Notes: generated by a model not told the origin, from the letters alone. DNA of 64,000 bases from an uncultured Bifidobacterium sp. (GCA_964653385.1 CAZZFB010000001.1:3523-67522); one strand, 5' to 3'; counted from the stretch's first letter, positions 7,390 to 58,775 are shown. Numbers and translations: made by a program.

Positions 7390-7767
7390 TCATCGGGGGA
7401 GCATCGCGTCGAGCCGGGCCACGAGCGGGCTGCCCGCGGGGACGCGCAGTGCGACCATCGTCCCCCCGCGCAGGGAGTAGACCGCGTGGCCATGGTGGTC
7501 GTCGGCGACCTTCGCCTCCACCGTGTAGACGCCCGCCACGGCGCGCGAACCGGTGAACCCGGGCTGGAGGACCAGCGAGTCCCGGCCCACGCCGCCCCTC
7601 ACCGGTGCCCACCTGCCCGGCCGCCCGCCGCGCGCATCCAGCAGGCGAGCCCGTGCGATGAAACGCGAGCCGTCGCGGTCCACCCAATGGGGCTCGTGGC
7701 GACGTCCCCACCACACCAGGGCCGAGAGCACCGCGACGAAGAGTGCCGACGTGATGAAGTTCGCCAT
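7390..7767 (-). CDS. Hypothetical membrane-anchored protein (single N-terminal TM helix)
   Basis: Internal start MANFITSALFVAVLSALVWW of track ORF 7390..8010, 125 aa. Non-shadow-like composition. No motif I can name confidently. Confidence 0.5.
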   Translation of the reverse strand: MANFITSALFVAVLSALVWWGRRHEPHWVDRDGSRFIARARLLDARGGRPGRWAPVRGGVGRDSLVLQPGFTGSRAVAGVYTVEAKVADDHHGHAVYSLRGGTMVALRVPAGSPLVARLDAMLPR

Positions 7768-7816
7768 GCCACCCCTTGTCGGTCCCCGGGAACGCCCGCG
7801 TGAGAGAATAGGCGTG

Positions 7817-8260
7817 ATGTCCCCGATCGCACTGGTTGCCTCCGACATGCGCGTGAACGCACTCTCGCTCGCCATGATCGTCACGGGCATCGTGCTCTTC
7901 GTGGTGACGGTGCGGTTCTGGCGGTCGGCCGGCGAGGACCCTGAGGTCCTCGCCCCGCTCGAGGTCATGGGGGACCGCCGGTTCGCCCGTGCCGACGAGG
8001 AGGGGCGCATCGGGATCCTGAACTCGGTGAGGCCCGACGGCGCGGAGAGGATCGACCACGTGGAGGCGCCCGCGGTGCTCGACCACGAGCCGGCGCAGCA
8101 GCGCCGGCCGTTCCGCGACAGGTTCGACCACCGCGACGACGCCGTCGACGTGGTCGAGGAGGCACAGGCGGCGGAGGAGGAGGCCGGGAGGCCCTACGTG
8201 CCGCCGGTGATAGACCCGCTGCTCAGCCAGCAGCAGAACGAGAACAAGCAGGACAACTGA
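7817..8260 (+). CDS. Hypothetical membrane protein with acidic/Gln-rich C-terminal tail
   Basis: Internal start MSPIALVASDMRVNALSLAMIVTGIVLFVVTV of track ORF 7553..8260, containing one TM helix. Alternative starts are GTG 7814 or ATG 7847. Confidence 0.5.
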   Translation: MSPIALVASDMRVNALSLAMIVTGIVLFVVTVRFWRSAGEDPEVLAPLEVMGDRRFARADEEGRIGILNSVRPDGAERIDHVEAPAVLDHEPAQQRRPFRDRFDHRDDAVDVVEEAQAAEEEAGRPYVPPVIDPLLSQQQNENKQDN

Positions 8261-9897: not shown

Positions 9898-10533
9898 TCA
9901 GGCGAAGTCCGGGATCTTCCAGCCGGTGACCTGGAGGATCGCGAGCTGGGTCCGGTGGGAGAGTTCGTTCGACGTGAGGAGGGCCTCCACCCGGTTGCGA
10001 ACTGTCTGGAGGGGGAGCGACAGCGTCTCGGCGATGTCACTGTCGGTGAGGCCGCTGGCGATGAGGTCGGCCACGTCCGCATCGAGCGGGGTCGGGTACG
10101 TCAGCTCGCGGGCGAGGAGCCCCGGTTCGAGGTCGAGTCTGGCGAGGGACGGGTGGTCGTAGAGGGACACGTGACCGGCGGCGACACCGGACAGGTGGGT
10201 GGAGACGGCGTCCACGTGCTGGTCGGCGTCCACCACGCCCTCGTACCCGTACTGCAGGGCGCGCACGACCTGCACGCGCGACGGGGAGGGAGCCGCGACG
10301 ACGTACGAGGTCGTGGCGGCGGTGTCCAGGCAGGAACGGATCATCCTGGCCAGGTTGAACCAGTCGACGGGGAACATGAATATGTCCACCGGTCCGCTCT
10401 TCAGTGCGTCGACCGCGTGCCGTCCGGTCTCGGCGACATCCACCACCTGCACCGTGCCGGTGGAGGGGAGACCCCCGACGAGGCCGTCAAGGGGGGACTG
10501 GGGGCTGTTCCCGATGACCACTCGCAGCATCAT
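9898..10533 (-). CDS. LuxR/FixJ-family transcriptional regulator with degenerate (pseudo-)receiver domain
   Basis: C-terminal HTH LTDSDIAETLSLPLQTVRNRVEALL...L.SHRTQLA. The N-domain has a receiver-like layout but lacks the acidic pocket (RVVIGNSPQ instead of DD, VDIFMFPVDW at the phospho-acceptor position). ATG 10533 is adjacent to GGAGGA. Alternative start at 10548. Confidence 0.7.
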   Translation of the reverse strand: MMLRVVIGNSPQSPLDGLVGGLPSTGTVQVVDVAETGRHAVDALKSGPVDIFMFPVDWFNLARMIRSCLDTAATTSYVVAAPSPSRVQVVRALQYGYEGVVDADQHVDAVSTHLSGVAAGHVSLYDHPSLARLDLEPGLLARELTYPTPLDADVADLIASGLTDSDIAETLSLPLQTVRNRVEALLTSNELSHRTQLAILQVTGWKIPDFA

Positions 10534-10657
10534 TCCTCCGGTCGTCATCCGTTGCCCCGGGTTCGGAGCACGTTCACTAGGAGCGTAACCCCAGCGACGG
10601 TCGGCATCAGTGACCACGGCATGCGAGGTAGGGACGTCCCCGAGTAGGTTCGCGGCC

Positions 10658-11596
10658 ATGAGCGTGCAGTTCGGTATCCATCTCGGCCCGCAGAACGCCT
10701 CGGTGGCGGACCTCCGTGCACTGTGGCGCTGGTTCGACTCTGCCGGCATGGACTGGATCTCGCTGTGGGACCACATCTACGAGGCGCCGCCCGCCGGCGG
10801 CACACAACCTCATTTCGAGGCGTTCTCGATGCTCGGTGCGCTCGCCGCAGACACCGAGCGCGCGCGCATCGGGTGCCTGGTCTTCTGCTCCCAGTACCGC
10901 AACATCGGTGTCCTCGCCAAGGGTGTCATCTCCGTCGACCACATCTCCGGCGGCCGGTTCGAGATGGGGCTCGGCAGCGGCTGGCACGACCAGGAGGCGA
11001 AGGCATTCGGGCTCGACTGGCCCTCGCAGGGTGGGCGTTTCAAGGTGATGGAGTCGCAGCTGCAGGCACTCACGAAGTGGCGGGCAGGGGAACGCGTCAC
11101 GCAGTCATCCCCCGGGGTCGAGCTGTCCGATGCCGCGATGGTGCCCGGACCGATGGGCCGCATGCCGATCTGGATCGGCGGGGTCGGCCGCGAGAAGACG
11201 CTCCGGATGGCCGGCCGGTACGCGGACGGGTGGAACGCCGCGTACGTGCCACCCGCGGAGTACCGCGAGCTGAACGGCATCCTCGATGACTGGTGCGAGA
11301 AGGCGGGGCGCGACCCCTCCTCGGTGGAGCGCTCCATCAACCTGTCGTACGGGCTCAGCACCGACGACGTGTCCGTGGTGAAGGACCGCCTGCACAGCCA
11401 GTGGGGCGCGGGGGCGGAGCGCATCATCGCCGGTTCGTTGCTGGGCCGGCCCGGGGACGTGATGGAGCAGGTCGCGGCGTTCGTGGATGCCGGTGCGCAG
11501 CTCATCAACATCGCCATCAGGCCGCCGTGGGACCGCGAGGTGCTGGCCGAGTACGTGGAGACGGTCGTCCCGGCCATGCGGAGGGAATGGCCGTAG
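10658..11596 (+). CDS. LLM-class (luciferase-like) flavin/F420-dependent oxidoreductase
   Basis: MSVQFGIHLGPQ...WDHIY...FEAFSMLGALAADTERARIGCLV...GGRFEMGLGSGW, a typical luciferase-like monooxygenase fold pattern. Confidence 0.8.
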   Translation: MSVQFGIHLGPQNASVADLRALWRWFDSAGMDWISLWDHIYEAPPAGGTQPHFEAFSMLGALAADTERARIGCLVFCSQYRNIGVLAKGVISVDHISGGRFEMGLGSGWHDQEAKAFGLDWPSQGGRFKVMESQLQALTKWRAGERVTQSSPGVELSDAAMVPGPMGRMPIWIGGVGREKTLRMAGRYADGWNAAYVPPAEYRELNGILDDWCEKAGRDPSSVERSINLSYGLSTDDVSVVKDRLHSQWGAGAERIIAGSLLGRPGDVMEQVAAFVDAGAQLINIAIRPPWDREVLAEYVETVVPAMRREWP

Positions 11597-14992: not shown

Positions 14993-16204
14993 ATGCCGTT
15001 GGAACTTGACTTTGGACCGGCCGCGGAGGCCTTCCGCACCGAGGTGCGCGAGTGGCTGGAGGCGAACAAGCCTGCCGACCTGGTGGGCGTCAACGCCGAC
15101 GAGGCACAGCGCGGTCAGCACCCGGGCCTGAGCGCCTGGGCGAAGAAGCTGACTGAGGCCGGTTACATGTGCGTCGGCTGGCCGAAGGAGTACGGCGGCC
15201 GCGGCCTGACCGGCGTGGAAGTGGCGGTGCTGAACGAGGAGTTCGCCCGCGCGAACGTTCCGCGCATCACCCGCGGCATGGGCGAGTGGCTCGTGGGCCC
15301 CTCCATCATCGTGTGGGGCACCGAGGAGCAGAAGCGCCGCTTCCTTCCGCGCATCGTGGACGGCACCGACCGTTACTGCCAGGGCTTCTCGGAGCCGGAC
15401 GCCGGTTCCGACCTCGCGTCACTGAAGACGCGCGGCGTCATCGACGGTGACGAGGTCGTCATCACCGGCCAGAAGGTGTGGACCTCCGGCGCGACCGAGG
15501 CGAACATGATGTTCTGTCTCGCGCGCACGGACCTGGATGCCCCGAAGCACGCCGGCATCTCGTACGTGCTGCTCCCCATGTTCAAGGAGGACAAGTCCTC
15601 CAACGGCATCGAGCTGCGCCCGATCCGCCAGCCGCACGGTGCCTCGCACTTCACCGAGACGTTCCTCACGGAGTCACGCGCGCCGGTCGACAACATCATC
15701 GGCGGCATGAACAACGGGTGGCGCGTCACCATGACCACGCTCGGCAACGAGCGCGGCGGCAACGCCACCACACAGCACGTGGAGTTCACGAAGCAGTTCT
15801 GGGCCGCGGTGAAGATGCTGCAGGCCTCCGGCAAGGCCAAGGACCCGATCATCCGCCAGGAGCTGGCCTGGGCCTACAGCCACGTGGAGATCATGCGCTT
15901 CAACGGCCTGAAGGTGCTGTCCGAGGTCATCGCCCGCAAGGAGCCCGGCCCGGGTGCCTCGGTGAACAAGATGTTCTGGTCCGAGTACGCCCAGAAGTTC
16001 TCCGAGCGGATGATGAACGCCCGCGGCGCCGACGCCATGCTGGCCATCAACGAGCCGGGCCAGCCGTTCGCGGTGGACCGGTGGACGTCGATGTTCTTCC
16101 AGCACAGGTCCTCCACGATCTGGGGCGGCACCGCACAGGTGCAACGCAACATCGTGGGCGAGAGGGTGCTCGGGCTCCCGAAGGAGCCGGGCCAGAAGGG
16201 CTGA
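14993..16204 (+). CDS. Acyl-CoA dehydrogenase
   Basis: YCQGFSEPDAGSDLASL, ITGQKVWTSGA and C-terminal IWGGTAQVQRNIVGERVLGLP. ATG 14993 follows GGGGGACA, whereas the track start is GTG 14972. Confidence 0.85.
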   Translation: MPLELDFGPAAEAFRTEVREWLEANKPADLVGVNADEAQRGQHPGLSAWAKKLTEAGYMCVGWPKEYGGRGLTGVEVAVLNEEFARANVPRITRGMGEWLVGPSIIVWGTEEQKRRFLPRIVDGTDRYCQGFSEPDAGSDLASLKTRGVIDGDEVVITGQKVWTSGATEANMMFCLARTDLDAPKHAGISYVLLPMFKEDKSSNGIELRPIRQPHGASHFTETFLTESRAPVDNIIGGMNNGWRVTMTTLGNERGGNATTQHVEFTKQFWAAVKMLQASGKAKDPIIRQELAWAYSHVEIMRFNGLKVLSEVIARKEPGPGASVNKMFWSEYAQKFSERMMNARGADAMLAINEPGQPFAVDRWTSMFFQHRSSTIWGGTAQVQRNIVGERVLGLPKEPGQKG

Positions 16205-16234
16205 CCCGGCCCCTTGGGGGCCACCCTGCGGGGC

Positions 16235-16936
16235 TCAGCTCTTGTCTTCGCCGTCCTTGCCGGTCTCGAAGAAGTCCTTCGCGTCTGCGTCCATGCCGCG
16301 GCGCTTCTTGTCGCGGAAGTTGGACGTGGCCCGGGACATGCTCGCCATGGCCGCCCGCGAGCTGCGGCCCGTGGCCTGCCACGCAGACGTGGAGCCCTGG
16401 TCGTAGCCGAACCGGGCGGCGTCGGCGTAGGCATCGAGCCCGGCCGAGAGGAAGACGAACTGCCAGCCGTCGGCCGTGCGCTCCGCGATGAGCTGGCGCA
16501 CCTTCTCGAGCGTGTACTCGCGGCTCTGGTTCTCCTCGCCGTCGGTCACGGTGACGAAGACGATGTCGTCCTTGCGCAGGCCGGTGGCCTCGCGTGCCCC
16601 CTGGTCCACCATGACCCGGCCGATGGCCAGACCGGTGGCGTCGAGGAGGGGAGTGCCGCCGCGGGGCACGTAGGACGTGCGGTCGAGTGCGACCGCCTCC
16701 GTGATCGGGGCCCCCCAGACGACCACCTCCTGCGGGTCCTGGGAGTCGAACAGGATGATGCTGACGCGGGCGTCGGGCCCGTTCGCCTGCTGGTCGGCGA
16801 GGAAGGTGTTGAACCCCCCGATGACGTCGTTGACGATCGAGGACATGGAGCCGGACCTGTCGAGCAGCACCACGATGTGGGTGCCGTTCGGGCGGGCCTG
16901 CTGCTGGTTGTCGTTGGTGGACGGGTTGTTGGTCAT
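16235..16936 (-). CDS. Small von Willebrand factor A (vWA) domain protein
   Basis: MIDAS motif VVLLDRSGSM and later TDGEEN. 233 aa with a charged C-terminal tail. RBS GAAAGG. Confidence 0.8.
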   Translation of the reverse strand: MTNNPSTNDNQQQARPNGTHIVVLLDRSGSMSSIVNDVIGGFNTFLADQQANGPDARVSIILFDSQDPQEVVVWGAPITEAVALDRTSYVPRGGTPLLDATGLAIGRVMVDQGAREATGLRKDDIVFVTVTDGEENQSREYTLEKVRQLIAERTADGWQFVFLSAGLDAYADAARFGYDQGSTSAWQATGRSSRAAMASMSRATSNFRDKKRRGMDADAKDFFETGKDGEDKS

Positions 16937-16956
16937 TGTGTGCCTTTCGTGATCTC

Positions 16957-16975
16957 AATCCCGACCGTCGGGATT
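16957..16975. promoter_or_regulatory. 19-bp perfect palindrome between the Nudix-regulator gene and the vWA gene
   Basis: AATCCCGAC-C-GTCGGGATT, with imperfect extension CTCAAT.../...ATTTGAG. It lies 31 nt after the Nudix stop and 20 nt before the vWA start. No U-tract follows on the transcribed strand. Confidence 0.45.
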
Positions 16976-17006
16976 TGAGTAAAGGTCACTATAACCAGAG
17001 GGTGTG

Positions 17007-17747
17007 TCAGTCCCTCCGCGGGGCTGAGCGGAACCGGATCGGCGGGGAGATCTCCCGTGCCCGGCCTGCCTTGTAGAGCATCGGCGGGCGACCGGGGCTG
17101 GGCTGGTCGGAAGTGATGATCCCGAGCGGCTGGATGAAGTTCTTGGTGAGCTCCACCTTGCGGCGGAAGTTGGCCGGGTCGACCTCGTCCTGGAGGAACG
17201 CCTCGTAGACCATCCGCAGGTCGGACATGGTGAACTTCGGCTGGCAGAAGCTGACCGCGATCGGGGTGTCCTCGAGCATCTGGAAGGCCTTGGCCCTGGC
17301 GTCGCTGATGATCCGGTGGTGGTCGAACTCGAGCACCCGGGAGGACTGGAGCTGGCGGTAGGGAACGAACTTGGCCTCCACCGAGTGCTTGATCGGGGCT
17401 ATCTCGCCGGGATGGGGCAGGAGGGCGAGGTAGGCGATCGAAAAGGCCCGCCAACGGCTGTCCCTGTCGGGGTCCCCGTAGGCACCCACCTGGTGGAGAT
17501 CCTTGTGGCGCAGGGTTATGCCAGTCTCCTCGTGCACTTTCCGCAGGGCGGTGTCTTCCAGGGGTTCCTTCTCCTTGACGGCCCCTCCGGGAAGTGCCCA
17601 ACTCTTGGAGGGGGCATCAGGACGGCGCATCACCAACACCTCGAGGCGGTCCTTGGCGGCCAGGTTCCTGTCCGGGTTCACGGTCAGCACGACCGTGTCG
17701 ACATAGACGTAGAAGTCCGACTGGATGGTTCGCTCATGCTTCGGCAT
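17007..17747 (-). CDS. NrtR-like regulator: Nudix domain fused to C-terminal winged-helix DNA-binding domain
   Basis: Nudix box GAVKEKEPLEDTALRKVHEETGI (RK replaces RE). The C-terminal stretch LEFDHHRII...FTMSDLRMVYEAFL...DPANFRRKV...GRPPMLY is characteristic of the NrtR wHTH. ATG 17747 follows GGAGG. Confidence 0.75.
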   Translation of the reverse strand: MPKHERTIQSDFYVYVDTVVLTVNPDRNLAAKDRLEVLVMRRPDAPSKSWALPGGAVKEKEPLEDTALRKVHEETGITLRHKDLHQVGAYGDPDRDSRWRAFSIAYLALLPHPGEIAPIKHSVEAKFVPYRQLQSSRVLEFDHHRIISDARAKAFQMLEDTPIAVSFCQPKFTMSDLRMVYEAFLQDEVDPANFRRKVELTKNFIQPLGIITSDQPSPGRPPMLYKAGRAREISPPIRFRSAPRRD

Positions 17748-17943
17748 GCCTCCAGTGTGCCACCACCGAGTGTCAGATTTGGGACAAAGGCTCCCATTCC
17801 GCTTGTCACAGTGCCCGGGCGGGGAGGGCCGGCCTGGGAACGGGGAATAAGTCCGGACCACCGTTAGTTGCACACACCCTGTCGTTATAGTCCGACCGTC
17901 CTAAACCCCCGGCCCCGGCCGGGCCGATCGCTCAAGGAGCCCA

Positions 17944-19431
17944 ATGACCACACACACCACCGGACAGCCCGTCTCAACCCGCCACATCAGCTACCCCCAG
18001 AAGTTCCGTGCCACCGGCGCCATCCTCGGCGCGGCCATCGGGGACGCCCTCGGGGCCCCGTTCGAGTTCAAGCCCGGCGGCCTGTACTCGTCACACTTCC
18101 CCGGTCCGGTCCTGTCCGGCACCGGCGAGATGATCGGCGGGGGCGGTTTCGGGTGGGCGCCCGGTGAGTTCACGGACGACACACAGATGGCCATGGCCCT
18201 CGCGGAGTCGCTCATCGCCCACGGCGGCCTGGACCTCGACGACCTGTGGGAGCGCTTCCAGGCATGGAAGCACTCGGCCGTCGACGTCGGGATCGTCACG
18301 GGAGTCGTGCTGTCCCAGCCGGTGCGCCACGGCGCGGCCGAGCACGGCCACCACGCCACCGGCGGCCGCAGCGCGAGCAACGGCTGCGTCATGCGCATCG
18401 CGCCCGTGGGCGTGCTCGGGGTGCGTCTCGGTTCGGACGCCACGGTCGCACTCGCGGCCGGCCAGGCCCGCCTCACGCACCACGACCCCGCCGCGGCGGT
18501 CGGCGCTGCGCTCGTGGCCGAGTTGATCCGCCACATCATCGTCACGGGCGAGTTCCGCGGGGTCGCCGAAGCGATCCTCGACGACTTCGCCGCCACCGGC
18601 ACGTTCGACGCCGCCGTAGTGGGCGAGTATCGCGGCTACGTGGCGGACGGCTTCGATCCGCTGTCGCCCGCGATCCCCGGGAACGGGTCCGTGTGGACGA
18701 CCGTGGGCCAGGCACTGTGGGCCGTGCGCAGCACGGACTCGTTCGAGGCCGCGATGCGCGCCGTCATCGACCTCGGCGGGGACACCGACACCGTGGCGGC
18801 CGTGGCAGGTGCCGTCGCGGGCGCACTGTACGGGGCGCAGCGCATCCCCATCCGCTGGACGACCTACGTGCACGGGTACCTGCGCATGCCCGACGGCTCC
18901 CAGCGCGAGTACCGCATGCAGGACCTGATCGATGTCTCGCGCCTGCTGCTGGGCGAAGGGAAGTCGACCATGTCGTACCGTGACGCGCCCGTCGGCCCGC
19001 GCCTGGTGCACAAGGCGGGGGTGCACGCCGCGAACCTGGACGGCGCGGCCACCGCCCCGCGCGACCACGCGGTCGTGTCGCTGTGCATGACGGAGGAGCG
19101 CTTCCTCAACCACGTCAACCGCCGCCAGATCTACATCCGCGACAAGGAGAACCCGCAGAACGACGACCTGTTCTTCGTGGTGCGCGACGCCGTGGAGGCG
19201 ATCGAGGCCTTCCTCGCGGAGGGGCGTGACGTGGTGGTGCACTGCCACGGCGGCCGCAGCCGCACCGGTCTCGTGCTGAAGGCCTGGTACATGGCCCATG
19301 AGGGTGCCTCCCACCGCCAGGCACACGATTGGCTGCGCGGCACGTGGGAGCACTACGAGACGTGGACACAGTCGTTCTGGGATTTCCTGGAGACCGAGTG
19401 GACGGCCCACGTGGGCCGGAAGGGAGCCTGA
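17944..19431 (+). CDS. ADP-ribosylglycohydrolase (ARH) fused to a CX5R dual-specificity/PTP-like phosphatase domain
   Basis: ARH motifs AAIGDALGAPFEF, EFTDDTQMAMALAESL and GGDTDTVAAVAGAVAGALYG in the first ~330 aa. The C-terminal ~130 aa has VVHCHGGRSRTGLV (C-x5-R-T). SD AAGGAG lies 5 nt upstream of ATG 17944. Confidence 0.85.
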   Translation: MTTHTTGQPVSTRHISYPQKFRATGAILGAAIGDALGAPFEFKPGGLYSSHFPGPVLSGTGEMIGGGGFGWAPGEFTDDTQMAMALAESLIAHGGLDLDDLWERFQAWKHSAVDVGIVTGVVLSQPVRHGAAEHGHHATGGRSASNGCVMRIAPVGVLGVRLGSDATVALAAGQARLTHHDPAAAVGAALVAELIRHIIVTGEFRGVAEAILDDFAATGTFDAAVVGEYRGYVADGFDPLSPAIPGNGSVWTTVGQALWAVRSTDSFEAAMRAVIDLGGDTDTVAAVAGAVAGALYGAQRIPIRWTTYVHGYLRMPDGSQREYRMQDLIDVSRLLLGEGKSTMSYRDAPVGPRLVHKAGVHAANLDGAATAPRDHAVVSLCMTEERFLNHVNRRQIYIRDKENPQNDDLFFVVRDAVEAIEAFLAEGRDVVVHCHGGRSRTGLVLKAWYMAHEGASHRQAHDWLRGTWEHYETWTQSFWDFLETEWTAHVGRKGA

Positions 19432-19435
19432 CCCC

Positions 19436-20869
19436 GTGATCGACCTGATGGAGGCCGAGGAGGCTGTGATCGCGCACCTCAACCGCATCGCGTGCATCGA
19501 CCAGGACGTGGACGAGCACGGCGAGGAGGTCCCGCTCTCGTTCCCGCTCACGTTCTTCACCCTGGAGAACGCGGTGGTGTGCCGCGCGACGCTGTACACG
19601 CGCTTCAACGGCGCGGTGGTGCTGCGCATCGACGCCGACGTCACGGAGGCGGACGACTCGGCGTCGCTCCGCCAGTGGGCGCTCGACACGCCAGGCCAGC
19701 TGCCGTACGTGCAGATCCGCTACCAGCGCGACTCCCGCGACGGCACGGCCACGGTCACGGCCACCCACTCCCTCGCGGTGGACCAGCTGAACCGGTTCGT
19801 GCTGGAGCAGGTGGTGTCGTCGTTCGACTTCATAGTCCCGCAGTGGATCGCGAAGGCGGCCCAGATCGAGGCCGTCGCCGAGCTGAACGCCCAGCGCCAG
19901 CGCAAGAAGATCGAGGAGGCCGCGCGCTCCGGGACCGAAGAGGACCACAGCGACGACTCCGACGACCCGTTCGGTGTCGACGAGGACGCTCCCGCACCCG
20001 CCACCACCGTCCACGAGGCCACCGGTGTGGACGCCGTGCTGAAGGAACTGTCCGGTCTGATCGGTCTCGAGCCGGTGAAGAAGCTGGTGCGCGACCTGAC
20101 CGACGTGCAGCGCGTCGCGACGCTCCGCGAGAACGCCGGCCTCAAGCCGCTCCGTCCCTCGCCGCATCTCGTGTTCACCGGCAACCCGGGGACCGGCAAG
20201 ACCACGGTCGCCCGCCTCATCGGACGTCTCTACAAGGAGATGGGGCTCCTGCGCCGCGGCCACGTGGTGGAGACCGGCCGCCAGGGGTTGATCGGCGGCT
20301 ACATCGGGCAGACGGCGATCAAGACCGCCGAGGTGCTGAAGTCCGCCGAGGACGGCGTGCTCTTCATCGACGAGGCGTACTCGCTCGCGGTCGGCCACCA
20401 CCTCGACTACGGCCGCGAGGCCATCGAGACGATCCTCGCGCACATGGAGAACAACCGCGGGCGCATCGCGGTCGTCGTCGCGGGGTACCCCGACAAGATG
20501 AAGGATTTCCTGGTGATGAACCCGGGTCTCGCCAGCCGCTTCGACCACACGCTGAAGTTCCCCGACTTCTCGAACGACGAGCTCGTCGAGGTCTTCGAGA
20601 TGTTCGCCCGCGCGCACGACTACGTGCTCACGCCCGCCGCGCGTGCACACCTGCTGGGGATCGTCTCCGGATGGCCCCGCGGCGCGACATTCGCGAACGC
20701 GCGGGAGGTCCGCAAGCTCTTCAACGACGTGGTGATGAGGCACTCCGCGGCCGTCGTGGCCGGCGGGATGAGCCTGGGGAACGGTCTCGTCGAGATCGAC
20801 ACGTGCCACTTCGCGGATGGCGGCGGCACGTCGTCCGGCGGCGGGGCGCGTCGTTTCGGCTATCTCTGA
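19436..20869 (+). CDS. CbbX/SpoVK/EccA-type AAA+ ATPase with a ~170-aa non-TPR N-terminal domain and acidic linker
   Basis: Walker A GNPGTGKTT, Walker B VLFIDEAYSL, AGYPDKM and GLASRF. GTG 19436 lies 4 nt after the upstream stop (alternative ATG 19448). The N-domain has a mixed alpha/beta pattern that I judge YbjN/secretion-chaperone-like by eye only. Confidence 0.8.
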   Translation: MIDLMEAEEAVIAHLNRIACIDQDVDEHGEEVPLSFPLTFFTLENAVVCRATLYTRFNGAVVLRIDADVTEADDSASLRQWALDTPGQLPYVQIRYQRDSRDGTATVTATHSLAVDQLNRFVLEQVVSSFDFIVPQWIAKAAQIEAVAELNAQRQRKKIEEAARSGTEEDHSDDSDDPFGVDEDAPAPATTVHEATGVDAVLKELSGLIGLEPVKKLVRDLTDVQRVATLRENAGLKPLRPSPHLVFTGNPGTGKTTVARLIGRLYKEMGLLRRGHVVETGRQGLIGGYIGQTAIKTAEVLKSAEDGVLFIDEAYSLAVGHHLDYGREAIETILAHMENNRGRIAVVVAGYPDKMKDFLVMNPGLASRFDHTLKFPDFSNDELVEVFEMFARAHDYVLTPAARAHLLGIVSGWPRGATFANAREVRKLFNDVVMRHSAAVVAGGMSLGNGLVEIDTCHFADGGGTSSGGGARRFGYL

Positions 20870-20927
20870 CATACCCGCGCGGGGCAATGGCCGTCCCGCG
20901 GTGCGCCGCGGAAACTAGGGTCGAGCC

Positions 20928-22688
20928 GTGCGATTCGAGGCGTTGCGGCGGCTGGACGGCCGTCTCCACCCGGACAGCGGCAAGTCCCCCGGCGGCACTG
21001 CGTTCTCCGCCATCCACCGCAGGGCGGCACTCGTCGCGGCACTCGTCGCGGGTCTCGTCTCGTTCTCCGTGGCGTTGCGCCAGTACGGGCCCACCGTGCA
21101 CCCCGACGAGTGGGGATTCCTGCTGAACGGCAGGGTCATCATGGGGCACGCCGAGGCGCAGATCCCCACGGGCAGCTTCTACCCCGCGGGGTTCGGCCTG
21201 GTGACCGGGCCGCTCGCCGAGCTCACCGGCTCGCTCGCGGGCGGGTACCGGGCGACGCTCGTCGTCAACTTCGTGCTGTGCGTCCTGGTGGGCGTCACCG
21301 CGCGGCTCGTGGGTCGGCGCGTGTTCGGGATGGGCGAGAACGCGGCAACCGTGGCCGGGGCCCTCGCCTTCGTGGTCCCGGGCACGATCGTGACGAGCCT
21401 GTTCGCCTGGCCGGAGACCGCGGCCCGTCTCGCGTTCCTCGTGTTCGTGCTCTGGTTCCACCGCATCGCGGGGGAGCGCAGGAGAGGCCCGATGCTCCTG
21501 TTCGGGTTCCTGGTGGGTCTCATGCCCGGCCTGCACGGGAGGTTCACCCTGGTCCTGCCCGTCGTGTGCTGCGTGTTCCTGCTGTGGGGGCTGCGCCGTG
21601 ACATCAGCAGGGTGCTCGCCGTGGGGGCGTGCGCCGTCACCACCGCCGGGTACGCGTGCAGCTACCTGCTGAACAGGTTCGTGAAGAACTCGCTCTACGG
21701 GGCCTCCTACGACCAGGAGAACAGGCTCCTGCGCCGTCTCGTCGACCCCACGCTGTGGCCGGCGCTCCTGCGCACCATGACGGGGCAGTCGTGGTACCTC
21801 GTGGCCACCTCGGGAGGGCTGGTCGCCGTGGCAGTGGCGTACATGGTCGTCCGCGTGCGCTCCGGCGGCGGGCTGCGGACCGTGCGCACGGACCCCTCCC
21901 GCCTGACGTGCCTCGTGATCGTCGTCAACACCGCGCTCCTCGTGTTCACCGGGGGGCTGCAGCTCCTCTTCGGGAACCGCGGAGACCACCTCATCTACGG
22001 CAGGTACGTGGAGATCCTCGTGCCCGTCATCCTCGTGGCCGGGTGCGCGGCGCTCGAGTCCTCGCGCCTGCTCGCGCTGCGGGCATGGTTGCTCGGCGCG
22101 GTCGGCACGCTCGCCGTCGCGCTTCTGTACGTGCTCGTCGACATGGGTGACGGCGTCAAGGGCGGCTGGGCGCGCAACGACATCGTCTTCCCGAACATCG
22201 TCGGCACCGATGCGATGAGGTACCTGGTGCGGCCCGGTCTCGTGACGTTCGGTGCCGCGTTCGCCCTCGCCGGCCTGCTCCTGTGGTGGGCCTACCGGAG
22301 GCACGGAGCGTGGGCACCCGTGCTCATGGTCGCCTTGCTCGCGGTCGGGTCCTCGTGGTCGGCGCAGCGCAGCATCCTCACCCGCACCGACGACCTCGAG
22401 GCCACCGGGGTGAGCGTCGACTACGTGAGGGAGGCCGGCGGAACGCTCATCGGCTTCGACGAGGGAGTGCGCAACGACCGCTCGTACTACTACCTGCGGT
22501 ACCGCCTGCACCCCGTCGCTCTCGTCAGGTTCGACATCTCCTCCCCGGACGCGGTGATCCCGGCCGCGTACTCCTGCCTCTACGGGTTCCCGAACAAGCC
22601 CCCGCGGGGCGGGGAGTGGCGCATCGTCGCCGATGAGATACCCCTCAGACGAGTACTGTGGCAACGGGTCGGGACCGACCGTTGTTGA
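20928..22688 (+). CDS. Polytopic membrane protein, probable GT-C-type glycosyltransferase
   Basis: More than 10 TM helices, acidic motif VHPDEWGF after TM1 and a ~110-aa soluble C-terminus. Immediately upstream of a polyprenol-phosphate GT2 gene. Confidence 0.55.
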   Translation: MRFEALRRLDGRLHPDSGKSPGGTAFSAIHRRAALVAALVAGLVSFSVALRQYGPTVHPDEWGFLLNGRVIMGHAEAQIPTGSFYPAGFGLVTGPLAELTGSLAGGYRATLVVNFVLCVLVGVTARLVGRRVFGMGENAATVAGALAFVVPGTIVTSLFAWPETAARLAFLVFVLWFHRIAGERRRGPMLLFGFLVGLMPGLHGRFTLVLPVVCCVFLLWGLRRDISRVLAVGACAVTTAGYACSYLLNRFVKNSLYGASYDQENRLLRRLVDPTLWPALLRTMTGQSWYLVATSGGLVAVAVAYMVVRVRSGGGLRTVRTDPSRLTCLVIVVNTALLVFTGGLQLLFGNRGDHLIYGRYVEILVPVILVAGCAALESSRLLALRAWLLGAVGTLAVALLYVLVDMGDGVKGGWARNDIVFPNIVGTDAMRYLVRPGLVTFGAAFALAGLLLWWAYRRHGAWAPVLMVALLAVGSSWSAQRSILTRTDDLEATGVSVDYVREAGGTLIGFDEGVRNDRSYYYLRYRLHPVALVRFDISSPDAVIPAAYSCLYGFPNKPPRGGEWRIVADEIPLRRVLWQRVGTDRC

Positions 22689-38815: not shown

Positions 38816-40216
38816 ATGCCCTCCGTCCACCAAGACCCGGGGTCGTTTCGTGACCCCCTGAGCCGGGTCTTCGTCGGTGAGGACCGCGTGGTGCGGGCCT
38901 TCACCGCGGCCGGCAAGGCCGATCTCGATGCCGTGTGGTCGAGGAAGTCGATTGCCGGTGCGCTCTCCTCCGGGGACCTGATCGAGTCCACACTTGTGGA
39001 TCCCGCCTCGGCCGGCCTGTCCGCGCCGTGGGTCGCGGCGATGACCCATCCCCGGGTCCCGTTCATCTCGTACCCGTACGAGTGGACGTTCTCCATGCTG
39101 AAGGATGCCGCCCTCCTGCAGCTGCGGCTCACGCGCCAGACCCTCGCCGACGGTGTGGGCCTGAAGGATGCCACGCCCTACAACGTCCAGTTCATCGGGT
39201 CGCGGGCACAGTTCATCGATGCGGGATCGTTCGAGGTCCGCAGGAAGTCGGACCCGTGGTACGGCTACCGCCAGTTCTGCGAACTGTTCCTGTACCCGCT
39301 CATGCTGCAGGCCTACCTGGGCGTGGGCTTCCAGCCCTTCCTCCGCGGCGCCGTGAACGGCATCGCTCCCGGCACGATGCGCAAACTGCTGCCCGCGAGC
39401 ATCAGGCACCCGCGCAAGGGGCGGCTCACGCACGTCGTGCTGCACGCCGCGGCGCAGGACAGGTTCGCCGACACCGATGTGGAGGTGAAGAAGGAGGCCG
39501 CCAAGGCGGGCATGAGCGCGGCAGTCCTCGACGCCACGCTCCGGAAACTGGAGAAGCTGGTGTCGTCGCTGGAGCTCGGCGACAAGAAGTCCACGTGGTC
39601 CGAGTACACCGAGCGCGGCCACTACATCGAGGACAGCCTGGACGAGAAGGAGCGCTTCGTGCGCGACGCGGTGGCCTTGAGCCCGCGGCGCCTCGTGACC
39701 GACATCGGGTGCAACGACGGCAAGTTCAGCCGCATCGCCGCCGCCCACAGTGACCACGTCGTGGCGATGGACGCGGACCCGCTGGTGGTCGACCGGCTCT
39801 ACGGTGCGCTGAAGAGCGAGAAGAACGAGAAGATCCTCCCGCTGTACGTGGACATGTCCGACTCGGGCGGCGGGATCGGCTGGCGCGGCCGGGAGCGTCC
39901 CGGCGTGTTCGACCGCGGCACGCCCGACGTCGTCCTGTACCTGGCGGTCATCCACCACGTCGCGATCACGTTCAACATCCCTGTCGCCGCGCAGCTCGAC
40001 ATGCTCGCCGACCTCGCGCCGGAGATCGTGATCGAGATGCCGCACGCGGATGACCCGATGGTGCGCAAGCTGCTCGTCAACAAGCGCGTGGGTATCCACG
40101 ACGACTTCACACTCGAGGAGTTCGAGCGCCTCCTCGGCGAGCGGTTCGACGTGAAGTCGCGGTTGCTCCTCTCCAGCGGGACCCGCACGATCTTCCACGC
40201 CGTGCGCCGGGCCTGA
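38816..40216 (+). CDS. Two-domain protein: N-terminal kinase-like-motif domain plus C-terminal class I SAM-dependent methyltransferase
   Basis: C-terminal motif I VTDIGCNDGKFS and VVAMDADP. The N-domain has YPYEWTFSMLKDAAL and LKDATPYNVQF...FIDAGSFE (D-x4-N followed 17 residues later by a D-x-G). Confidence 0.7.
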   Translation: MPSVHQDPGSFRDPLSRVFVGEDRVVRAFTAAGKADLDAVWSRKSIAGALSSGDLIESTLVDPASAGLSAPWVAAMTHPRVPFISYPYEWTFSMLKDAALLQLRLTRQTLADGVGLKDATPYNVQFIGSRAQFIDAGSFEVRRKSDPWYGYRQFCELFLYPLMLQAYLGVGFQPFLRGAVNGIAPGTMRKLLPASIRHPRKGRLTHVVLHAAAQDRFADTDVEVKKEAAKAGMSAAVLDATLRKLEKLVSSLELGDKKSTWSEYTERGHYIEDSLDEKERFVRDAVALSPRRLVTDIGCNDGKFSRIAAAHSDHVVAMDADPLVVDRLYGALKSEKNEKILPLYVDMSDSGGGIGWRGRERPGVFDRGTPDVVLYLAVIHHVAITFNIPVAAQLDMLADLAPEIVIEMPHADDPMVRKLLVNKRVGIHDDFTLEEFERLLGERFDVKSRLLLSSGTRTIFHAVRRA

Positions 40217-40257: not shown

Positions 40258-40277
40258 GTGCCCCGTCCGCGGGGCAC
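40258..40277 (+). terminator. Hairpin abutting the 5' end of tRNA-Cys
   Basis: GTGCCCCG-TCCG-CGGGGCAC, an 8-bp stem. It lies 41 nt after the methyltransferase stop and 2 nt before the tRNA. No T-tract. Confidence 0.35.
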
Positions 40278-40279
40278 TT

Positions 40280-40354
40280 GGCGACGTGGCGGAATGGTTT
40301 ACGCAGCGGCCTGCAAAGCCGTTTATCCGAGTTCGATTCTCGGCGTCGCCTCCA
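40280..40354 (+). tRNA. tRNA-Cys (anticodon GCA), CCA encoded
   Basis: Acceptor GGCGACG/CGTCGCC, anticodon loop CTGCAAA, T-arm CCGAGTTCGATTCTCGG, then TCCA. Confidence 0.92.
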
Positions 40355-40395
40355 GTGCTCGCACCCCGTGCAGGTTTGCCCTACCGTTTCCTGCC

Positions 40396-41196
40396 GTGAC
40401 GAACAGCAGCTCAACCACGGCAACCATCCTCTTCGACCGTTTCCGGCTCCTCTTCTCCTCGATCCCGGTGGTCGCGGTGGTGCTGGTCGTGCGCTTCCTC
40501 GTGCAGGAGGTGTGGGACATCGGCGAGGTCGCCACCTTCGGCGAGATCGGGTCTGTCATCACCGGCGTGACCCTCATCCTCGGTTTCATGCTGGGTGGCG
40601 TGCTGGCGGACTACAAGGAGTCGGAACGCCTGCCCGCGGTCGTTGCAGTCGGCCTCGGGGGCTTCCAGTCCACGTGCGCGCTCGCCCTCACCGCGAAGGA
40701 CCAAGACCACGCGTGGGCAACGGCGCGTGTCGCCGCGGTCGGGGAGGCGGTCCACGGTTGGCTGCTGGGGCAGCGCACGGACGCCGAGATGTGGGCGGCG
40801 CACGCGGACTTCGCGAGGCTCGTCACCGACGTCGAGAAGGCCGGCGGCGGCACCCACTACCTGGGACGGATGATGACCGTGAACGGGGAGCTCACCGCCA
40901 CGCTGAACCGCATCGCAGTTATCCGGAACACCTCGTTCGTGCAGTCGGGGTACGTGCTGATGACGTTCCTCGTCTTCATCCTTCAGCTCTCGCTCGCCGT
41001 CGTCACCTTCCCGTCGACGGTGATGTCGTGGATCGCGCCGTCGGTGCTGAGCCTCGCGTACGCGTACCTCCTGCTGCTGGTCCGCGACCTCGACAACCCG
41101 TTCGGTCACGGTGACAACGACGGCCACGGCAGCGGGGCGGACGTGGACATCTCGCCGGTCGCGGGTGCCGTGGCCGCCCTGCGGCGGGCTGTCTGA
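40396..41196 (+). CDS. Membrane protein, possibly bestrophin/DUF4239-like
   Basis: Track ORF 40258..41196 trimmed to GTG 40396 because its 5' part overlaps tRNA-Cys. Two TM pairs and C-terminal LVRDLDNPFGHGDND. The family call is tentative. Confidence 0.5.
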   Translation: MTNSSSTTATILFDRFRLLFSSIPVVAVVLVVRFLVQEVWDIGEVATFGEIGSVITGVTLILGFMLGGVLADYKESERLPAVVAVGLGGFQSTCALALTAKDQDHAWATARVAAVGEAVHGWLLGQRTDAEMWAAHADFARLVTDVEKAGGGTHYLGRMMTVNGELTATLNRIAVIRNTSFVQSGYVLMTFLVFILQLSLAVVTFPSTVMSWIAPSVLSLAYAYLLLLVRDLDNPFGHGDNDGHGSGADVDISPVAGAVAALRRAV

Positions 41197-41229
41197 TCAG
41201 CGGGCGCGGACCGGGCCACGGTCCCGGTT

Positions 41230-41667
41230 TCAGACGCGGCTGATCGGGATGCGCCTCTTCTCCTCGTGGTGACCGTTGGTCTTCACGCGGATCTCGAGGA
41301 TGCCGTCCCGGTACGTCGCCTTCACGTCGTCGGCACCGGCCCGGCCGTCCAGGTGGACCGCACGGTGGAGGTGGCCGTACGAGAACTCGGACCTGAACTG
41401 GCCGGACTCCGACTTCTCGGCCCTCCGCTCGCGGGTGATGTCGATGTTGAGCACGTCGTCGTCGACGGTCAGCGAGACGTCCTTCTCCGGGTCAATTCCC
41501 GGGATCTCGGCACGGATCACTCGGTGGTGGTCGGAGTCGAACTCCTCGATGCGGATGTCGGTGGAAGGGCCGAGCAACTCCATCTTCGGGGGCCAGAAGC
41601 CCACCGGCCAGGTGGGGAAACTGGCCGGCCAATCCAGCAACGGCCGCATCAGTGTGTTCCTGCTCAT
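41230..41667 (-). CDS. Hsp20/alpha-crystallin small heat-shock protein
   Basis: Alpha-crystallin domain: DIRIEEFDSDHHRVIRAEIPGIDPEKDVSLTVDDDVLNI...YRDGILEIRV. Confidence 0.9.
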   Translation of the reverse strand: MSRNTLMRPLLDWPASFPTWPVGFWPPKMELLGPSTDIRIEEFDSDHHRVIRAEIPGIDPEKDVSLTVDDDVLNIDITRERRAEKSESGQFRSEFSYGHLHRAVHLDGRAGADDVKATYRDGILEIRVKTNGHHEEKRRIPISRV

Positions 41668-41935
41668 GTCGTGTTCCTTTCGTCAGGGGACGATCTGACG
41701 GTAGGAAGCGGTGCGGCCGAGGTGAAGACCCGGCGTACCGAAGGGTAGGTGCGTCACCCGCGGGCGAGCACAAGTTCTCAAGCGAGGCGCCGATGATTGG
41801 CGACTGCAAGAAACCCTTGACCCTGTTGAGATTTTCTGTAAATCACCCCTGTGCCGAATGTGACACCTATGTGACTTTCGTCTACATTGGGGGGACGTCG
41901 CCGACCGGGCGGCACACCAATGGGGGGTTATCAAC

Positions 41936-43699
41936 ATGACATCACGAAGGAAGAGGTGGGGGGCAGCAGTCGCAGTCGCAATCGCGGCGTCGGCAATGGC
42001 CACTACCACCCAGGCCGCTGGCACCAAGCCGGCTGCCTCGAAACTCGGAGGCGACATCAACGTCGGCATCCTGAACACGATCTCGGGCTGGTGCTTCTCG
42101 AATGCACTCACCGGCGATGCCCTCGGTGCCACACGCACCGTGTACGAGAGCCTCGTGGAGCGCGACTCGCGCGGCAACTTCATCCCGCACCTCGCGTCCA
42201 AGTGGGCGTCCTCCGAGGGCGGCAAGGTGTGGACGTTCACGCTTCGCCCGAACATCAAGTTCTCCAACGGTGAGGATTTCAACGCCGAAGTCGTGAAAAT
42301 GAACATGGACCTCGGTCGTGGCGCTGTCATCAGCGGCAAGCTCGGCAGCTATACGTACTCCGGTATCGCGTACGGCTCGACTGGTGTCGGCGTGAACGCC
42401 AACATCATGAGCGTCGATGCTGTCGATCCGCTCACAGTGAAGATCACGCTCGAGCGCCCTGACAACGACTTCATCGGTCTCATGTACCGCGCGGGTCGCT
42501 ACGTCATGCGCGCCCCTGGTCAGATCCTGACTCCTGACGGCAAGGCCAACACGACGTCCACTACCGCGTCGTGCTCTCTCAAGGGCATCGGAACTGGTCC
42601 GTTCATGATCCAGTCGTACAACCCGAACGAACTCGTGGTCGTGCGCAACCCGAACTACTGGCGCAAGGACGCAGCCGGCACGCAACTGCCGTACCTGAAC
42701 TCCATCACCTTCGTTGTGGTGAAGGAGGCCTCGCAGCGTGCCGCAGCGCTCCGCCGCGGAAACCTGGATGCCGCGTCGTTCACCACGGGTGAGTCGACCT
42801 TCATCCTCGACCTGCGCAAGCGCAAGAGCGTCGTCACCGAGTATGCCGGCAAGGCGGCCTCGTGGGGCCAGTGGGTGCCGAACCAGAACAAGACCGGCTC
42901 TCCCTTCAAGTACCAGAACTGCCGCCTCGCAGCGGCGTTCGCCGTGGACTGGAAGACCTACAACCAGGTCCGCTTCAAGGGCCTCGGCGTGTACTCCGGC
43001 TCGATCGTGGGCACTGACCACATCATGTACACCCGCGCCGGTGCGCCCACCTACAACGTGGCGAAGGCCAAGGAGTACGTGGCGAAGTGCAACACCGATC
43101 TCGGCGCTGCCGGGCCGATGAAGCTCACGCTCTACGCGGACACCAGCACATCCTCGCTCAACAACGTGAAGGAAGTGCAGAAGTACTTCGAGGCGGCCGG
43201 CATCCAGATGAACCCGATCTTCCAGGCCGAGTCGGCCGTGCTGATCGCGTCCATCTACCGCGGTGGCGGCAACCTGTACGACTTCGCAGAGGGCACCCCG
43301 GCCGAGGGCCCGGGTTCGGGCTACGTTCTCCCGTTCTTCGTGACGGGCGCGTTCCCCGCGAACTCGACCAACCCGATCGCCAAGACTGCTCTGGGAATCG
43401 GCTACAACAAGGTCATCGCGCTCGGCAACCACAGCGACACCCAGGTGGACAACCTCCTGTACGCCGCCCAGGCTGAGACCAACGCGGCAGCCCGCAAGAA
43501 GAAGTTCCAGGAAGCCACTGCATACATGCAGGCGACGGGATTGCTCATCCCGACCGTGCACACGGCGACCTGGACCTTCGTCAACAACAAGGCCAAGCTG
43601 AAGGGCATCACCCAGTTCAAGAACCCTGATGGCAAGACCCTCGCTCCCACGAGGGACATCAAGGGCTTCGAGTGGACGGGAATCTGGCAGGAGCGCTAG
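41936..43699 (+). CDS. ABC transporter substrate-binding protein, family 5 (peptide/nickel type); no cognate permease genes adjacent
   Basis: Signal peptide without Cys. Contains KVWTFTLRPNIKFSNGEDFNAEVV and NPNYWRKD...LPYLNSITF. Paralogous to 56953..58755. Confidence 0.88.
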   Translation: MTSRRKRWGAAVAVAIAASAMATTTQAAGTKPAASKLGGDINVGILNTISGWCFSNALTGDALGATRTVYESLVERDSRGNFIPHLASKWASSEGGKVWTFTLRPNIKFSNGEDFNAEVVKMNMDLGRGAVISGKLGSYTYSGIAYGSTGVGVNANIMSVDAVDPLTVKITLERPDNDFIGLMYRAGRYVMRAPGQILTPDGKANTTSTTASCSLKGIGTGPFMIQSYNPNELVVVRNPNYWRKDAAGTQLPYLNSITFVVVKEASQRAAALRRGNLDAASFTTGESTFILDLRKRKSVVTEYAGKAASWGQWVPNQNKTGSPFKYQNCRLAAAFAVDWKTYNQVRFKGLGVYSGSIVGTDHIMYTRAGAPTYNVAKAKEYVAKCNTDLGAAGPMKLTLYADTSTSSLNNVKEVQKYFEAAGIQMNPIFQAESAVLIASIYRGGGNLYDFAEGTPAEGPGSGYVLPFFVTGAFPANSTNPIAKTALGIGYNKVIALGNHSDTQVDNLLYAAQAETNAAARKKKFQEATAYMQATGLLIPTVHTATWTFVNNKAKLKGITQFKNPDGKTLAPTRDIKGFEWTGIWQER

Positions 43700-43724
43700 A
43701 AGCCAGTCACTGAAAGGCTCGGGA

Positions 43725-43750: not shown

Positions 43751-43806
43751 TTCTGCGTACCCGGGCCGTGTTCCTGCCCGGGGAGAGCAGCGTTTAGGGT
43801 GTGTCC

Positions 43807-58755: not shown

Positions 58756-58775
58756 TGAGTTACCCCCAAAGTTGG

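Follow-up and report, generated by a model that had tools for sequence, protein, structure and literature searches.

Systems built around an ADP-ribosylglycohydrolase (ARH) that has no coupled transferase have been predicted computationally, and were termed 'ARG-centric' by Iyer, Burroughs, Anantharaman and Aravind (2022, Viruses 14:1977, PMC9503650, section 3.8). As set out in that section, over 42% of such systems carry a regulator, either a Nudix-helix-turn-helix (Nudix-HTH, NrtR-like) protein or a WYL protein, the two being mutually exclusive; about 55% carry a phosphatase, mostly of the rhodanese-phosphatase superfamily and either fused or adjacent; and the chaperone components include vWA, SseB and three families with a type III secretion system (T3SS) chaperone/YbjN fold. 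ARPP, Macro, NADAR and nucleases appear there as variable extras, with ARPP also found beside nuclease effectors. The model proposed by these authors is one of default repression, where ADP-ribose released by the hydrolase is the inducer, the enzymes remove the modification and chaperones bind to the proteins that bear it, and the proposed target is ADP-ribosylation by foreign enzymes. A second precedent is the Streptomyces nrtR1-draG-SCO1765 locus, filed as an NrtR 'ADPR' regulon by Rodionov et al. (2008, NAR 36:2047, PMC2330246), where the NrtR operator is given a GT-N7-AC core. Here, these systems are compared with a four-gene locus at positions 16235-20869 of a 64,000-nucleotide stretch of DNA recorded as an uncultured Bifidobacterium sp. 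(GCA_964653385.1 CAZZFB010000001.1:3523-67522, hereafter the window), the nearest relatives of which are metagenome-assembled genomes of freshwater Acidimicrobiia/Ilumatobacteraceae.

The locus is best read as a chromosomal member of the ARG-centric ADP-ribosylation-reversal systems, acting as a counter-measure against foreign ADP-ribosyltransferases, a reading to which we assign a probability of about 0.6; the module most likely strips ADP-ribose from modified proteins. As in the ARG-centric systems of Iyer et al., an ARH domain is fused to a phosphatase domain of the dual-specificity/protein-tyrosine phosphatase (DSP/PTP) type and is accompanied by a Nudix-HTH regulator and by vWA and T3SS/YbjN-fold chaperones, with no coupled ADP-ribosyltransferase or sirtuin. 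The locus is placed in this class because related loci reproduce the signatures published for it, namely NrtR/WYL exclusivity, association with ARPP, module turnover and fast evolution. Unlike the systems presented in the main text of that paper, in which the string 'AAA' has 0 occurrences, the chaperone fold is here fused to a CbbX-class AAA+ module with a conserved GY[LIV] end, and the locus also differs in occupying a fixed syntenic chromosomal site in its lineage and in having no nuclease effector. The likeness to the Streptomyces nrtR1-draG-SCO1765 locus lies in an actinobacterial NrtR that adjoins, and is predicted to control, a DraG-like hydrolase rather than NAD genes, whereas the account of that locus by Rodionov et al. 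gives no phosphatase fusion, vWA or AAA+ partner. A preliminary description of this DNA had proposed a self-regulated unit that reverses an ADP-ribose modification and had regarded the four-gene arrangement as undescribed. The first proposal remains the best-supported reading, although it was anticipated in the literature, Iyer et al. having put forward the same feedback by ADP-ribose; the second does not hold, since an arrangement of this kind was already predicted by Iyer et al. and the nrtR-draG pairing listed by Rodionov et al. The locus is a good experimental entry point with one unexplained conserved feature, and not a new kind of system.

The four open reading frames, re-read and searched against Pfam and NCBIfam, have the positions, spacings and domains given in the preliminary description. 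The regulator and vWA genes lie on the minus strand with a 70-nt gap, and the fusion and AAA+ genes on the plus strand with a gap of 4 nt, the latter two genes overlapping in orthologous loci. Between the regulator gene and the fusion operon is a divergent control region of 196 nt (17748-17943, assigned to neither strand) that contains blocks conserved across orthologous loci. It had been proposed that this region is AT-richer and shared by all four genes. The divergent region is indeed present, but its AT-richness is only slight, at a GC content of 0.648 against 0.686 for the high-GC window, and the vWA gene is not solely dependent on it: a second copy of the promoter motif stands upstream of that gene, at 16988-17006. 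Of 46 genes called in the 64-kb window, about 40 were scanned with Pfam, revealing only metabolic, transport and polysaccharide genes as neighbours, and no ADP-ribosyltransferase, sirtuin, NAD-biosynthesis, proteasome or mobile-element gene, in agreement with the earlier statement that neither a cognate ADP-ribosyltransferase nor an NAD gene is present. Four scanned proteins received no assignment, two having no match (7553-8260 and 40258-41196) and two having weak sub-threshold matches (9898-10776 and 38816-40216). The genes flanking the module were assigned from annotated syntenic loci.

The enzyme encoded by the locus is a 495-residue ARH-phosphatase fusion (17944-19431, plus strand). Its ARH domain (residues 25-302; 18016-18849, plus strand) is DraG/Tri1-like and matches Pfam ADP_ribosyl_GH (PF03747) at 1e-60, and the closest solved structures are those of Tri1 (6dre, 1.2e-31) and DraG (2woc, 1.5e-28). 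The NCBIfam equivalog cut-offs are not reached for either protein (126.8 against 337 bits for DraG, 135.7 against 490 bits for Tri1). The metal-binding and catalytic residues E41, T77, D78, D79, D280, D282 and T283 are invariant in 20 aligned homologues of 48-79% identity, and the same 20 proteins retain D400 and the C434-X5-R440 motif of the phosphatase domain without change. Given the resemblance to DraG and Tri1, the substrate of the ARH domain is probably arginine-linked ADP-ribose. Tri1 is an immunity protein that reverses the modification made by Tre1. The window ARH domain, like Tri1 and DraG, retains all di-metal and catalytic residues; however, Tri1 and DraG are coupled to the transferases Tre1 and DraT, whereas the window has no transferase nearby and its ARH domain carries an extra phosphatase domain.

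That second domain (18997-19431, plus strand) is a DSP/PTP-type cysteine phosphatase by its matches to DSPc (PF00782, 1e-9) and Tc-R-P (7e-8). When modelled alone with AlphaFold2 (AF2), it reached a predicted local distance difference test (pLDDT) score of 91.3, and a Foldseek search with the model returned DUSP5, DUSP10, SDP-1 and Tk-PTP (TM-score 0.7-0.85, E about 4e-7). The preliminary description had offered to abandon its reading if this CX5R domain did not adopt a PTP fold, and the model is DUSP-like. The fusion family itself is large, with 2607 matches at E<=1e-10, PF03747 and PF00782 being found together in 120 of the 120 top ones, and with 451 fusion-gene loci among GTDB species representatives. 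Five full-length fusions of 38-40% identity were also seen on IMG/VR contigs classed as viral (L084-L088), where they stand without any partner gene.

The regulator (17007-17747, minus strand; 246 residues from an ATG also used by orthologues) consists of a Nudix domain and a winged helix. Matches to NUDIX (PF00293, 4.6e-15) and NrtR_WHD (PF21906, 6.5e-12), and full-length similarity to AraR (5bs6, residues 34-226) and Shewanella NrtR (3gz5), confirm the earlier view of a protein with an NrtR-type C-terminus. It scores 72.8 bits against a cut-off of 400 for NCBIfam NF050029, the ADP-ribose-responsive NAD regulator; because of this score, and because the window holds no NAD gene, it is regarded as a member of the NrtR family and not as an NAD-regulon orthologue. 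The Nudix box (residues 54-77, GX5EX7-RK-VxEExGI) is nearly intact. The canonical Arg-Glu pair is replaced by Arg-Lys throughout the syntenic clade, whereas more distant NrtR partners of the fusion gene retain Arg-Glu, a pattern suggesting that in the syntenic clade a hydrolase has turned into a pure sensor. The protein is predicted to be an ADP-ribose-responsive repressor.

Alignment of the intergenic regions revealed a conserved block upstream of both the fusion and the vWA genes, consisting of CACACCC, a spacer of 5-6 nt, a TATAGT or TATATT -10 element, a CC(C)TAA box, a stem-loop and a ribosome-binding site. In the fusion operon the promoter/operator block lies at 17872-17907 (plus strand), with CACACCC-N5-TTATAGT at 17873-17891, and in the vWA gene at 16975-17009 (minus strand), with the same arrangement at 16988-17006. 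A profile built from 19 orthologous sites, from which the window and its closest relatives were excluded, finds these two sites only (E=0.0016 and E=0.0028, respectively), the next best match having E=18. The composite CACACCC-N4-7-TAnnnT occurs exactly twice in the 64-kb window, before the vWA and fusion genes, against 0.06 expected, and none of 100 shuffles reached two; nearly all NrtR-type loci also keep the motif upstream of the fusion gene. The TGACACACCC box on its own was rejected as a marker, with 55 matches against 85 expected when 2 mismatches were allowed, and is specific only in company with the -10 element. In the vWA promoter the stop codon (TGA) of the regulator gene falls inside the TGACACACCC box (17000-17009). 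The vWA gene is thus predicted to have its own promoter, overlapping the end of the regulator gene, and because this promoter carries the same motif, the vWA gene would belong to the same regulon as the fusion-ATPase operon. On this evidence there are two predicted transcription units, one of vWA alone and one of the fusion and AAA+ genes, that share the same unusual promoter block.

A scan for promoters and terminators on the locus found no canonical sigma-70 -35/-10 pair, no -35 element, and no terminator on the relevant strand. The CACACCC layout, with its upstream box some 8 nt away from the -10 element, recalls PafBC-dependent RecA-NDp promoters, although this is only an analogy. Candidate NrtR sites overlap the -10 element at both promoters. 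At the vWA promoter a 21-bp site (16974-16994, reaching one base past the promoter/operator block), TTATAGT-GACCTTT-ACTCAAA (TTATAGTGACCTTTACTCAAA), has the GT-N7-AC core and 6 of 10 palindromic pairs, and at the fusion promoter the corresponding 21-mer (17885-17905), TTATAGT-CCGACCG-TCCTAAA, reads GT-N7-TC, with one core mismatch. By eye, 11 of 20 orthologous promoters have a GT-N7-AC core in the corresponding position. Confidence that these candidates are NrtR operators is moderate at best.

Each predicted leader also contains a stem-loop. That of the vWA gene (16957-16975, minus strand; RNAfold z=-3.2), a perfect inverted repeat with 9-bp arms, lies between promoter and ribosome-binding site, and that of the fusion gene (CCCGGCC-CC-GGCCGGG, 17908-17923, plus strand) lies just upstream of an AAGGAG ribosome-binding site. 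A hairpin is retained at both positions in most orthologues while its sequence changes (RNAfold z about -1.2 to -4.1). The preliminary description had named 16957-16975 as a candidate binding site for the regulator; it was rejected as an NrtR site since the hairpin is kept while the sequence varies and since it sits in the transcribed leader, and an RNA stem-loop is more likely than a protein operator. The absence of a T-run after the stem-loop argues that it is not an intrinsic terminator. The two stem-loops may be mRNA-stabilising or regulatory; a search of Rfam over 16200-21000 gave no match.

The linkage of these genes was followed in 83 loci (80 of the 451 GTDB loci plus three more), which were searched with profiles of the partner genes, and counts per partner refer to 50 related loci flanked on both sides by at least 3 kb. 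NrtR accompanies the fusion gene in 31 of the 50 and a PafBC-like fused WYL regulator (HTH_PafC, WYL, WCX) in 12, with no locus carrying both. The ATPase occurs in 21 of them, vWA in 15 and ARPP in 9, and 6 loci have none of these partners. A group of 27 loci shares the flanking genes of the window; in this group NrtR is divergent from the fusion gene in 27/27, the ATPase follows the fusion gene in 22/27 and vWA is present in 16/27, a co-occurrence that could reflect inherited synteny. The linkage to NrtR-like and AAA+ genes, on which the preliminary description had made its reading depend, is also conserved in rearranged and non-syntenic contexts. For instance, L083 has an NrtR gene convergent to the fusion gene in an unrelated ZnuABC/GerE setting; three loci (L067, L070 and L078) have it downstream of the fusion gene, and in L076 it stands upstream and some distance away. 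In one ARPP-carrying locus (L068) the ATPase is found 1.5 kb downstream of the fusion gene, and in L103 NrtR and the ATPase are directly divergent neighbours without an intervening fusion gene. Pfam ARPP-1 (PF20208, E=2.9e-70), a signature protein of the ARG-centric systems, flanks fusion homologues in 11 of the 83 loci and is not found in the window, and 13 loci have a stand-alone Nudix hydrolase alongside the fusion gene. The four genes have median identities to the window of 50-63%, compared with 83% for the flanking acyl-CoA dehydrogenase and 89% for the flanking glycosyltransferase.

A different flanking set surrounds the fusion gene in acIV-type genomes (L035-L063; for instance L052 8439-13672 and L053 5377-7350). 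This set comprises a 657-residue fused PafB/PafC-like WYL regulator, a 176-residue stand-alone Nudix hydrolase, a 504-residue protein, two proteins of 255-266 residues that are mutual paralogues (hhalign 98%) and, often, ARPP-1. Pfam gave no match for the 255-266-residue and 504-residue proteins. The former were considered as chaperone equivalents in these WYL-type loci but could not be shown to be such, hhalign giving a probability of 0.2% against the N-domain of the ATPase. Rejected was the placement of the WYL-type loci in a Pup-proteasome cluster, the neighbours of the PafBC-like regulator being the 504-residue protein, a CoA-transferase and an enoyl-CoA hydratase.

The vWA protein (16235-16936, minus strand; 233 residues) is predicted to be a peptide-binding accessory subunit. 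Its match to Pfam VWA is marginal (5.7e-5, 23.9 bits against a cut-off of 23.8), but an alignment to the integrin I-domain shows the residues DxSxS..T..D of an intact metal-ion-dependent adhesion site (MIDAS; DRSGS...T...D), as had been stated earlier. A far stronger match is to the phage family phrog_7371 (8.7e-49). Homologues of 32-46% identity were seen in 217 phage genomes, mostly of Streptomyces, Microbacterium and Pseudomonas phages, where they are annotated as hypothetical; examples are gp59 of Microbacterium phage Megan, gp101 of Streptomyces phage LukeCage, and a protein of Xanthomonas phage XacN1. No ADP-ribose-related gene was found in the two phage neighbourhoods examined. The phage proteins could be mimics or antagonists of the host accessory protein.

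The AAA+ ATPase (19436-20869, plus strand; 477 residues from a GTG supported by orthologues) has three recognisable parts. The first is an N-domain (19436-19930, plus strand) with the fold of T3SS class-I chaperones and YbjN, or 'TY-chaperone' fold. AF2 predicts an alpha-beta3-alpha-beta2-alpha order for these 165 residues, with a pLDDT of 90.2, and each of the top 17 Foldseek matches in the PDB is either a T3SS class-I chaperone or YbjN/AmyR (probability 1.0, TM-score 0.45-0.6), so that the label 'chaperone-domain AAA+' given in the preliminary description is supported. Pfam returned only a spurious DUF3824 match for the N-domain at E<=10, and a word-indexed search with the domain alone returned one fragment. 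An exhaustive phmmer search found 12 representative clusters, all of them the same ATPase family or fragments of it, and the N-domain therefore appears to be without detectable stand-alone relatives.

The N-domain is followed by a CbbX/SpoVK/EccA-class AAA+ module with a variable C-terminal linker (20006-20857, plus strand; Walker A GNPGTGKT, Walker B DEAY, pore loop GYIG). The module contains AAA and AAA_lid_6 domains, matches the SpoVK (6e-75), CbbX (4e-68) and EccA (5e-62) families, and is nearest in structure to CbbX (3zuh, 6e-58) and EccA1 (9lur, 9e-44); the clade named in the preliminary description is borne out, with every equivalog cut-off left unreached (251.6 against 423, 229.9 against 459 and 210.3 against 467 across the three families). 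CbbX, the red-type Rubisco activase, and EccA, the ESX secretion ATPase, are likewise AAA+ proteins of this clade with AAA_lid_6, and each acts as a single-ring remodeller of specific protein clients, EccA having an N-terminal client-binding domain. The window ATPase differs from them in having a T3SS-chaperone/YbjN N-domain in place of TPR, a family-specific GY[LIV] end, and other genomic partners.

The third part is the C-terminal tripeptide Gly-Tyr-Leu (20858-20866, plus strand), with Ile instead of Leu in some members and Val in one lineage. After a tail of variable sequence, GY[LIV] is found in 16 of 16 aligned orthologues, in 29 of 29 complete fusion-gene neighbours, and in all distant family members (P0244-P0252), which have N-domain identities of 30-38%, whereas it was not found in about 100 other SpoVK-type ATPases compared. 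The pore loop is GY[IV]G across the family. Mycobacterial Mpa and Bpa dock on the 20S proteasome through a C-terminal GQYL, of which the Gln is dispensable and the penultimate Tyr is shared. The tail of the window ATPase, also actinobacterial and flexible, with a penultimate Tyr followed by Leu, resembles the proteasome-docking tails of Mpa/ARC and Bpa/PafE, and Mpa, unlike the ATP-independent Bpa, is an AAA+ protein with a threading pore loop, as is the window ATPase. However, the register is x-G-Y-L rather than G-Q-Y-L, the AAA+ clade is another one, and there is no genomic tie to pup, prc or paf. A T3SS-chaperone fold joined to a CbbX-class AAA+ module with a conserved GY[LIV] tail looks to be the only possibly new part of the system. 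Distant members of the ATPase family were seen without a hydrolase in L103 (89-2324), L099 (1799-4188) and L098 (101-2693), the last of them adjoining a gene for an extracytoplasmic function (ECF) sigma factor.

For a counter-measure against foreign ADP-ribosylation, the mechanism that we infer, including its substrate, inducer and trigger and the roles of vWA and the ATPase, would run as follows. In the resting state, the NrtR-like repressor would occupy a site overlapping the -10 element of both transcription units. Modification of host proteins by a foreign ADP-ribosyltransferase, from a phage or a toxin, would act as the trigger, whereupon basal ARH activity would free ADP-ribose and binding of this ligand by the Nudix domain of the regulator would lift repression. 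The induced fusion enzyme would take ADP-ribose off its targets, with the cysteine-phosphatase domain then perhaps acting on a terminal phosphate of the ADP-ribose set free, or of some related nucleotide or sugar. The vWA protein and the ATPase may recognise, hold or unfold modified proteins, giving access to the fusion enzyme, where the ATPase would contribute a T3SS-chaperone-like domain and a CbbX-type threading ring. If so, such modules would be among the first dedicated bacterial systems to undo ADP-ribosylation that comes from phages or toxins instead of a cognate partner, a counter-measure that has so far been predicted. The locus represents a compact and complete example, with a regulator, two promoters sharing a motif, a bifunctional enzyme and two accessory proteins, and it comes from abundant freshwater Acidimicrobiia in which natural variants without vWA or without the ATPase provide built-in controls. 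The ATPase tail and the chaperone-fold domain would offer a handle on the recognition of modified proteins, and may link the system to actinobacterial proteolysis.

Several observations weigh against this reading. The ARG-centric model of Iyer et al. is itself a prediction, and a literature search found no paper with an experimental test of a system of this type. The locus lies at a stable syntenic site among metabolic and polysaccharide genes in Ilumatobacteraceae-like genomes and not in a mobile or defence island, and the PADLOC defence models gave no meaningful match, with only weak, generic IetA/TRIP13 matches for the AAA+ protein and none for the fusion and vWA proteins. Since most of the Nudix catalytic residues are kept, the regulator may have an enzymatic role as well, and the substrate of the phosphatase domain is one that we only infer. 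There is no clean 21-bp NrtR palindrome, the vWA site reaching 6 of 10 pairs, and no strong palindrome in 17748-17943. Moreover, the CACACCC-N5-TATAGT block about 60 nt upstream of the fusion gene is also present in four loci (L027, L028, L030 and L033) where no NrtR gene was found, only L028 having long flanks (about 7 kb) on both sides. Because the block is kept in such loci, the CACACCC box may be read by a factor other than the adjacent NrtR.

The main rival reading is one of housekeeping or signalling with endogenous ADP-ribose, whereby the module would recycle O-acetyl-ADP-ribose, ADP-ribose-1''-phosphate or 2'-phospho-ADP-ribose, or would form the 'off' arm of a DraT/DraG-like cycle with its transferase encoded elsewhere, and NrtR would tie expression to NAD turnover. 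A stable chromosomal position kept over deep divergence, with no mobile-element or defence-island context, is what would be expected of such a pathway, as is the company of a stand-alone Nudix hydrolase in the 13 loci mentioned above, and a sugar- or nucleotide-directed phosphatase domain suits the processing of metabolites. The NrtR family, moreover, classically governs NAD and ADP-ribose metabolism, and Rodionov et al. file the Streptomyces nrtR1-draG pair under 'ADPR'. However, peptide-binding accessories such as vWA and the chaperone-AAA+ protein are hard to fit to a small-molecule pathway, and the closest ARH relatives target protein arginine. Nor does housekeeping readily account for the gain and loss of modules between close relatives, the swapping of equivalent regulators (NrtR and WYL), the faster divergence of the four genes relative to their flanks, or the association of the fusion family with ARPP-1, which is reported beside nuclease effectors in the section by Iyer et al. 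A housekeeping role is therefore a possible but doubtful explanation. That the four genes are adjacent by inherited synteny and have no joint function is already disfavoured and very improbable. Most four-gene loci do have the same flanks, so that much of the co-occurrence stems from common descent, but the linkage recurs in non-syntenic contexts, the promoter motif is common to the two transcription units only, the fusion and AAA+ genes are separated by 4 nt or overlap in orthologues, and Iyer et al. independently found the same set of components in other phyla.

Another explanation takes the ATPase as the core of the system and the hydrolase as auxiliary, in a form of quality control where damaged or ADP-ribosylated proteins would be recognised by way of the T3SS-chaperone-like domain and unfolded by an ATPase docking through its GY[LI] tail on the actinobacterial 20S proteasome or on another ring. 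The tail is present in all complete members of the ATPase family down to about 30% identity and was not found in the other SpoVK-type ATPases, it has the penultimate Tyr in common with the docking tails of Mpa and Bpa, and a pore loop of the GY[IV]G kind is what threading unfoldases typically have. The regulator can also be found facing the ATPase with no hydrolase gene between (L103), and one distant member (L099) directly follows a gene of the proteasome assembly chaperone 2 (PAC2) family. The PAC2 adjacency, however, is a single case, and genes for the proteasome, Pup or Paf were found neither in the window nor next to the WYL-type loci. The register of the tail differs, Gly standing at -3 and not at -4, and position -3 lacks the hydrophobic residue of HbYX. 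In addition, the nearest characterised relatives, CbbX and EccA, are remodellers rather than protease partners, and the ATPase is dispensable, being absent from five of the syntenic loci. Quality control of this kind is thus an unlikely basis for the locus as a whole. A bolder version holds that the ATPase represents a new family of client-specific unfoldases of the Acidimicrobiia that docks on the 20S proteasome or another ring by its tail, such that ADP-ribosylated proteins would be triaged between repair and degradation. This too seems improbable; if true, it would provide a third ATP-dependent proteasome partner in bacteria, and one under ADP-ribose-sensing transcriptional control.

Elsewhere in the window, stretches of lower GC content (0.62-0.65) at 41000-44000 and 54000-59000 coincide with peptide ABC-transporter genes (SBP_bac_5 and permeases), and represent variation in composition, no mobile-element genes being present there. 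A small heat-shock gene (HSP20) lies at 41230-41667 on the minus strand, about 20 kb from the module, and another is found in the unrelated locus L083 (11226-11672), about 2 kb from the fusion gene; this proximity in two settings is probably a coincidence.

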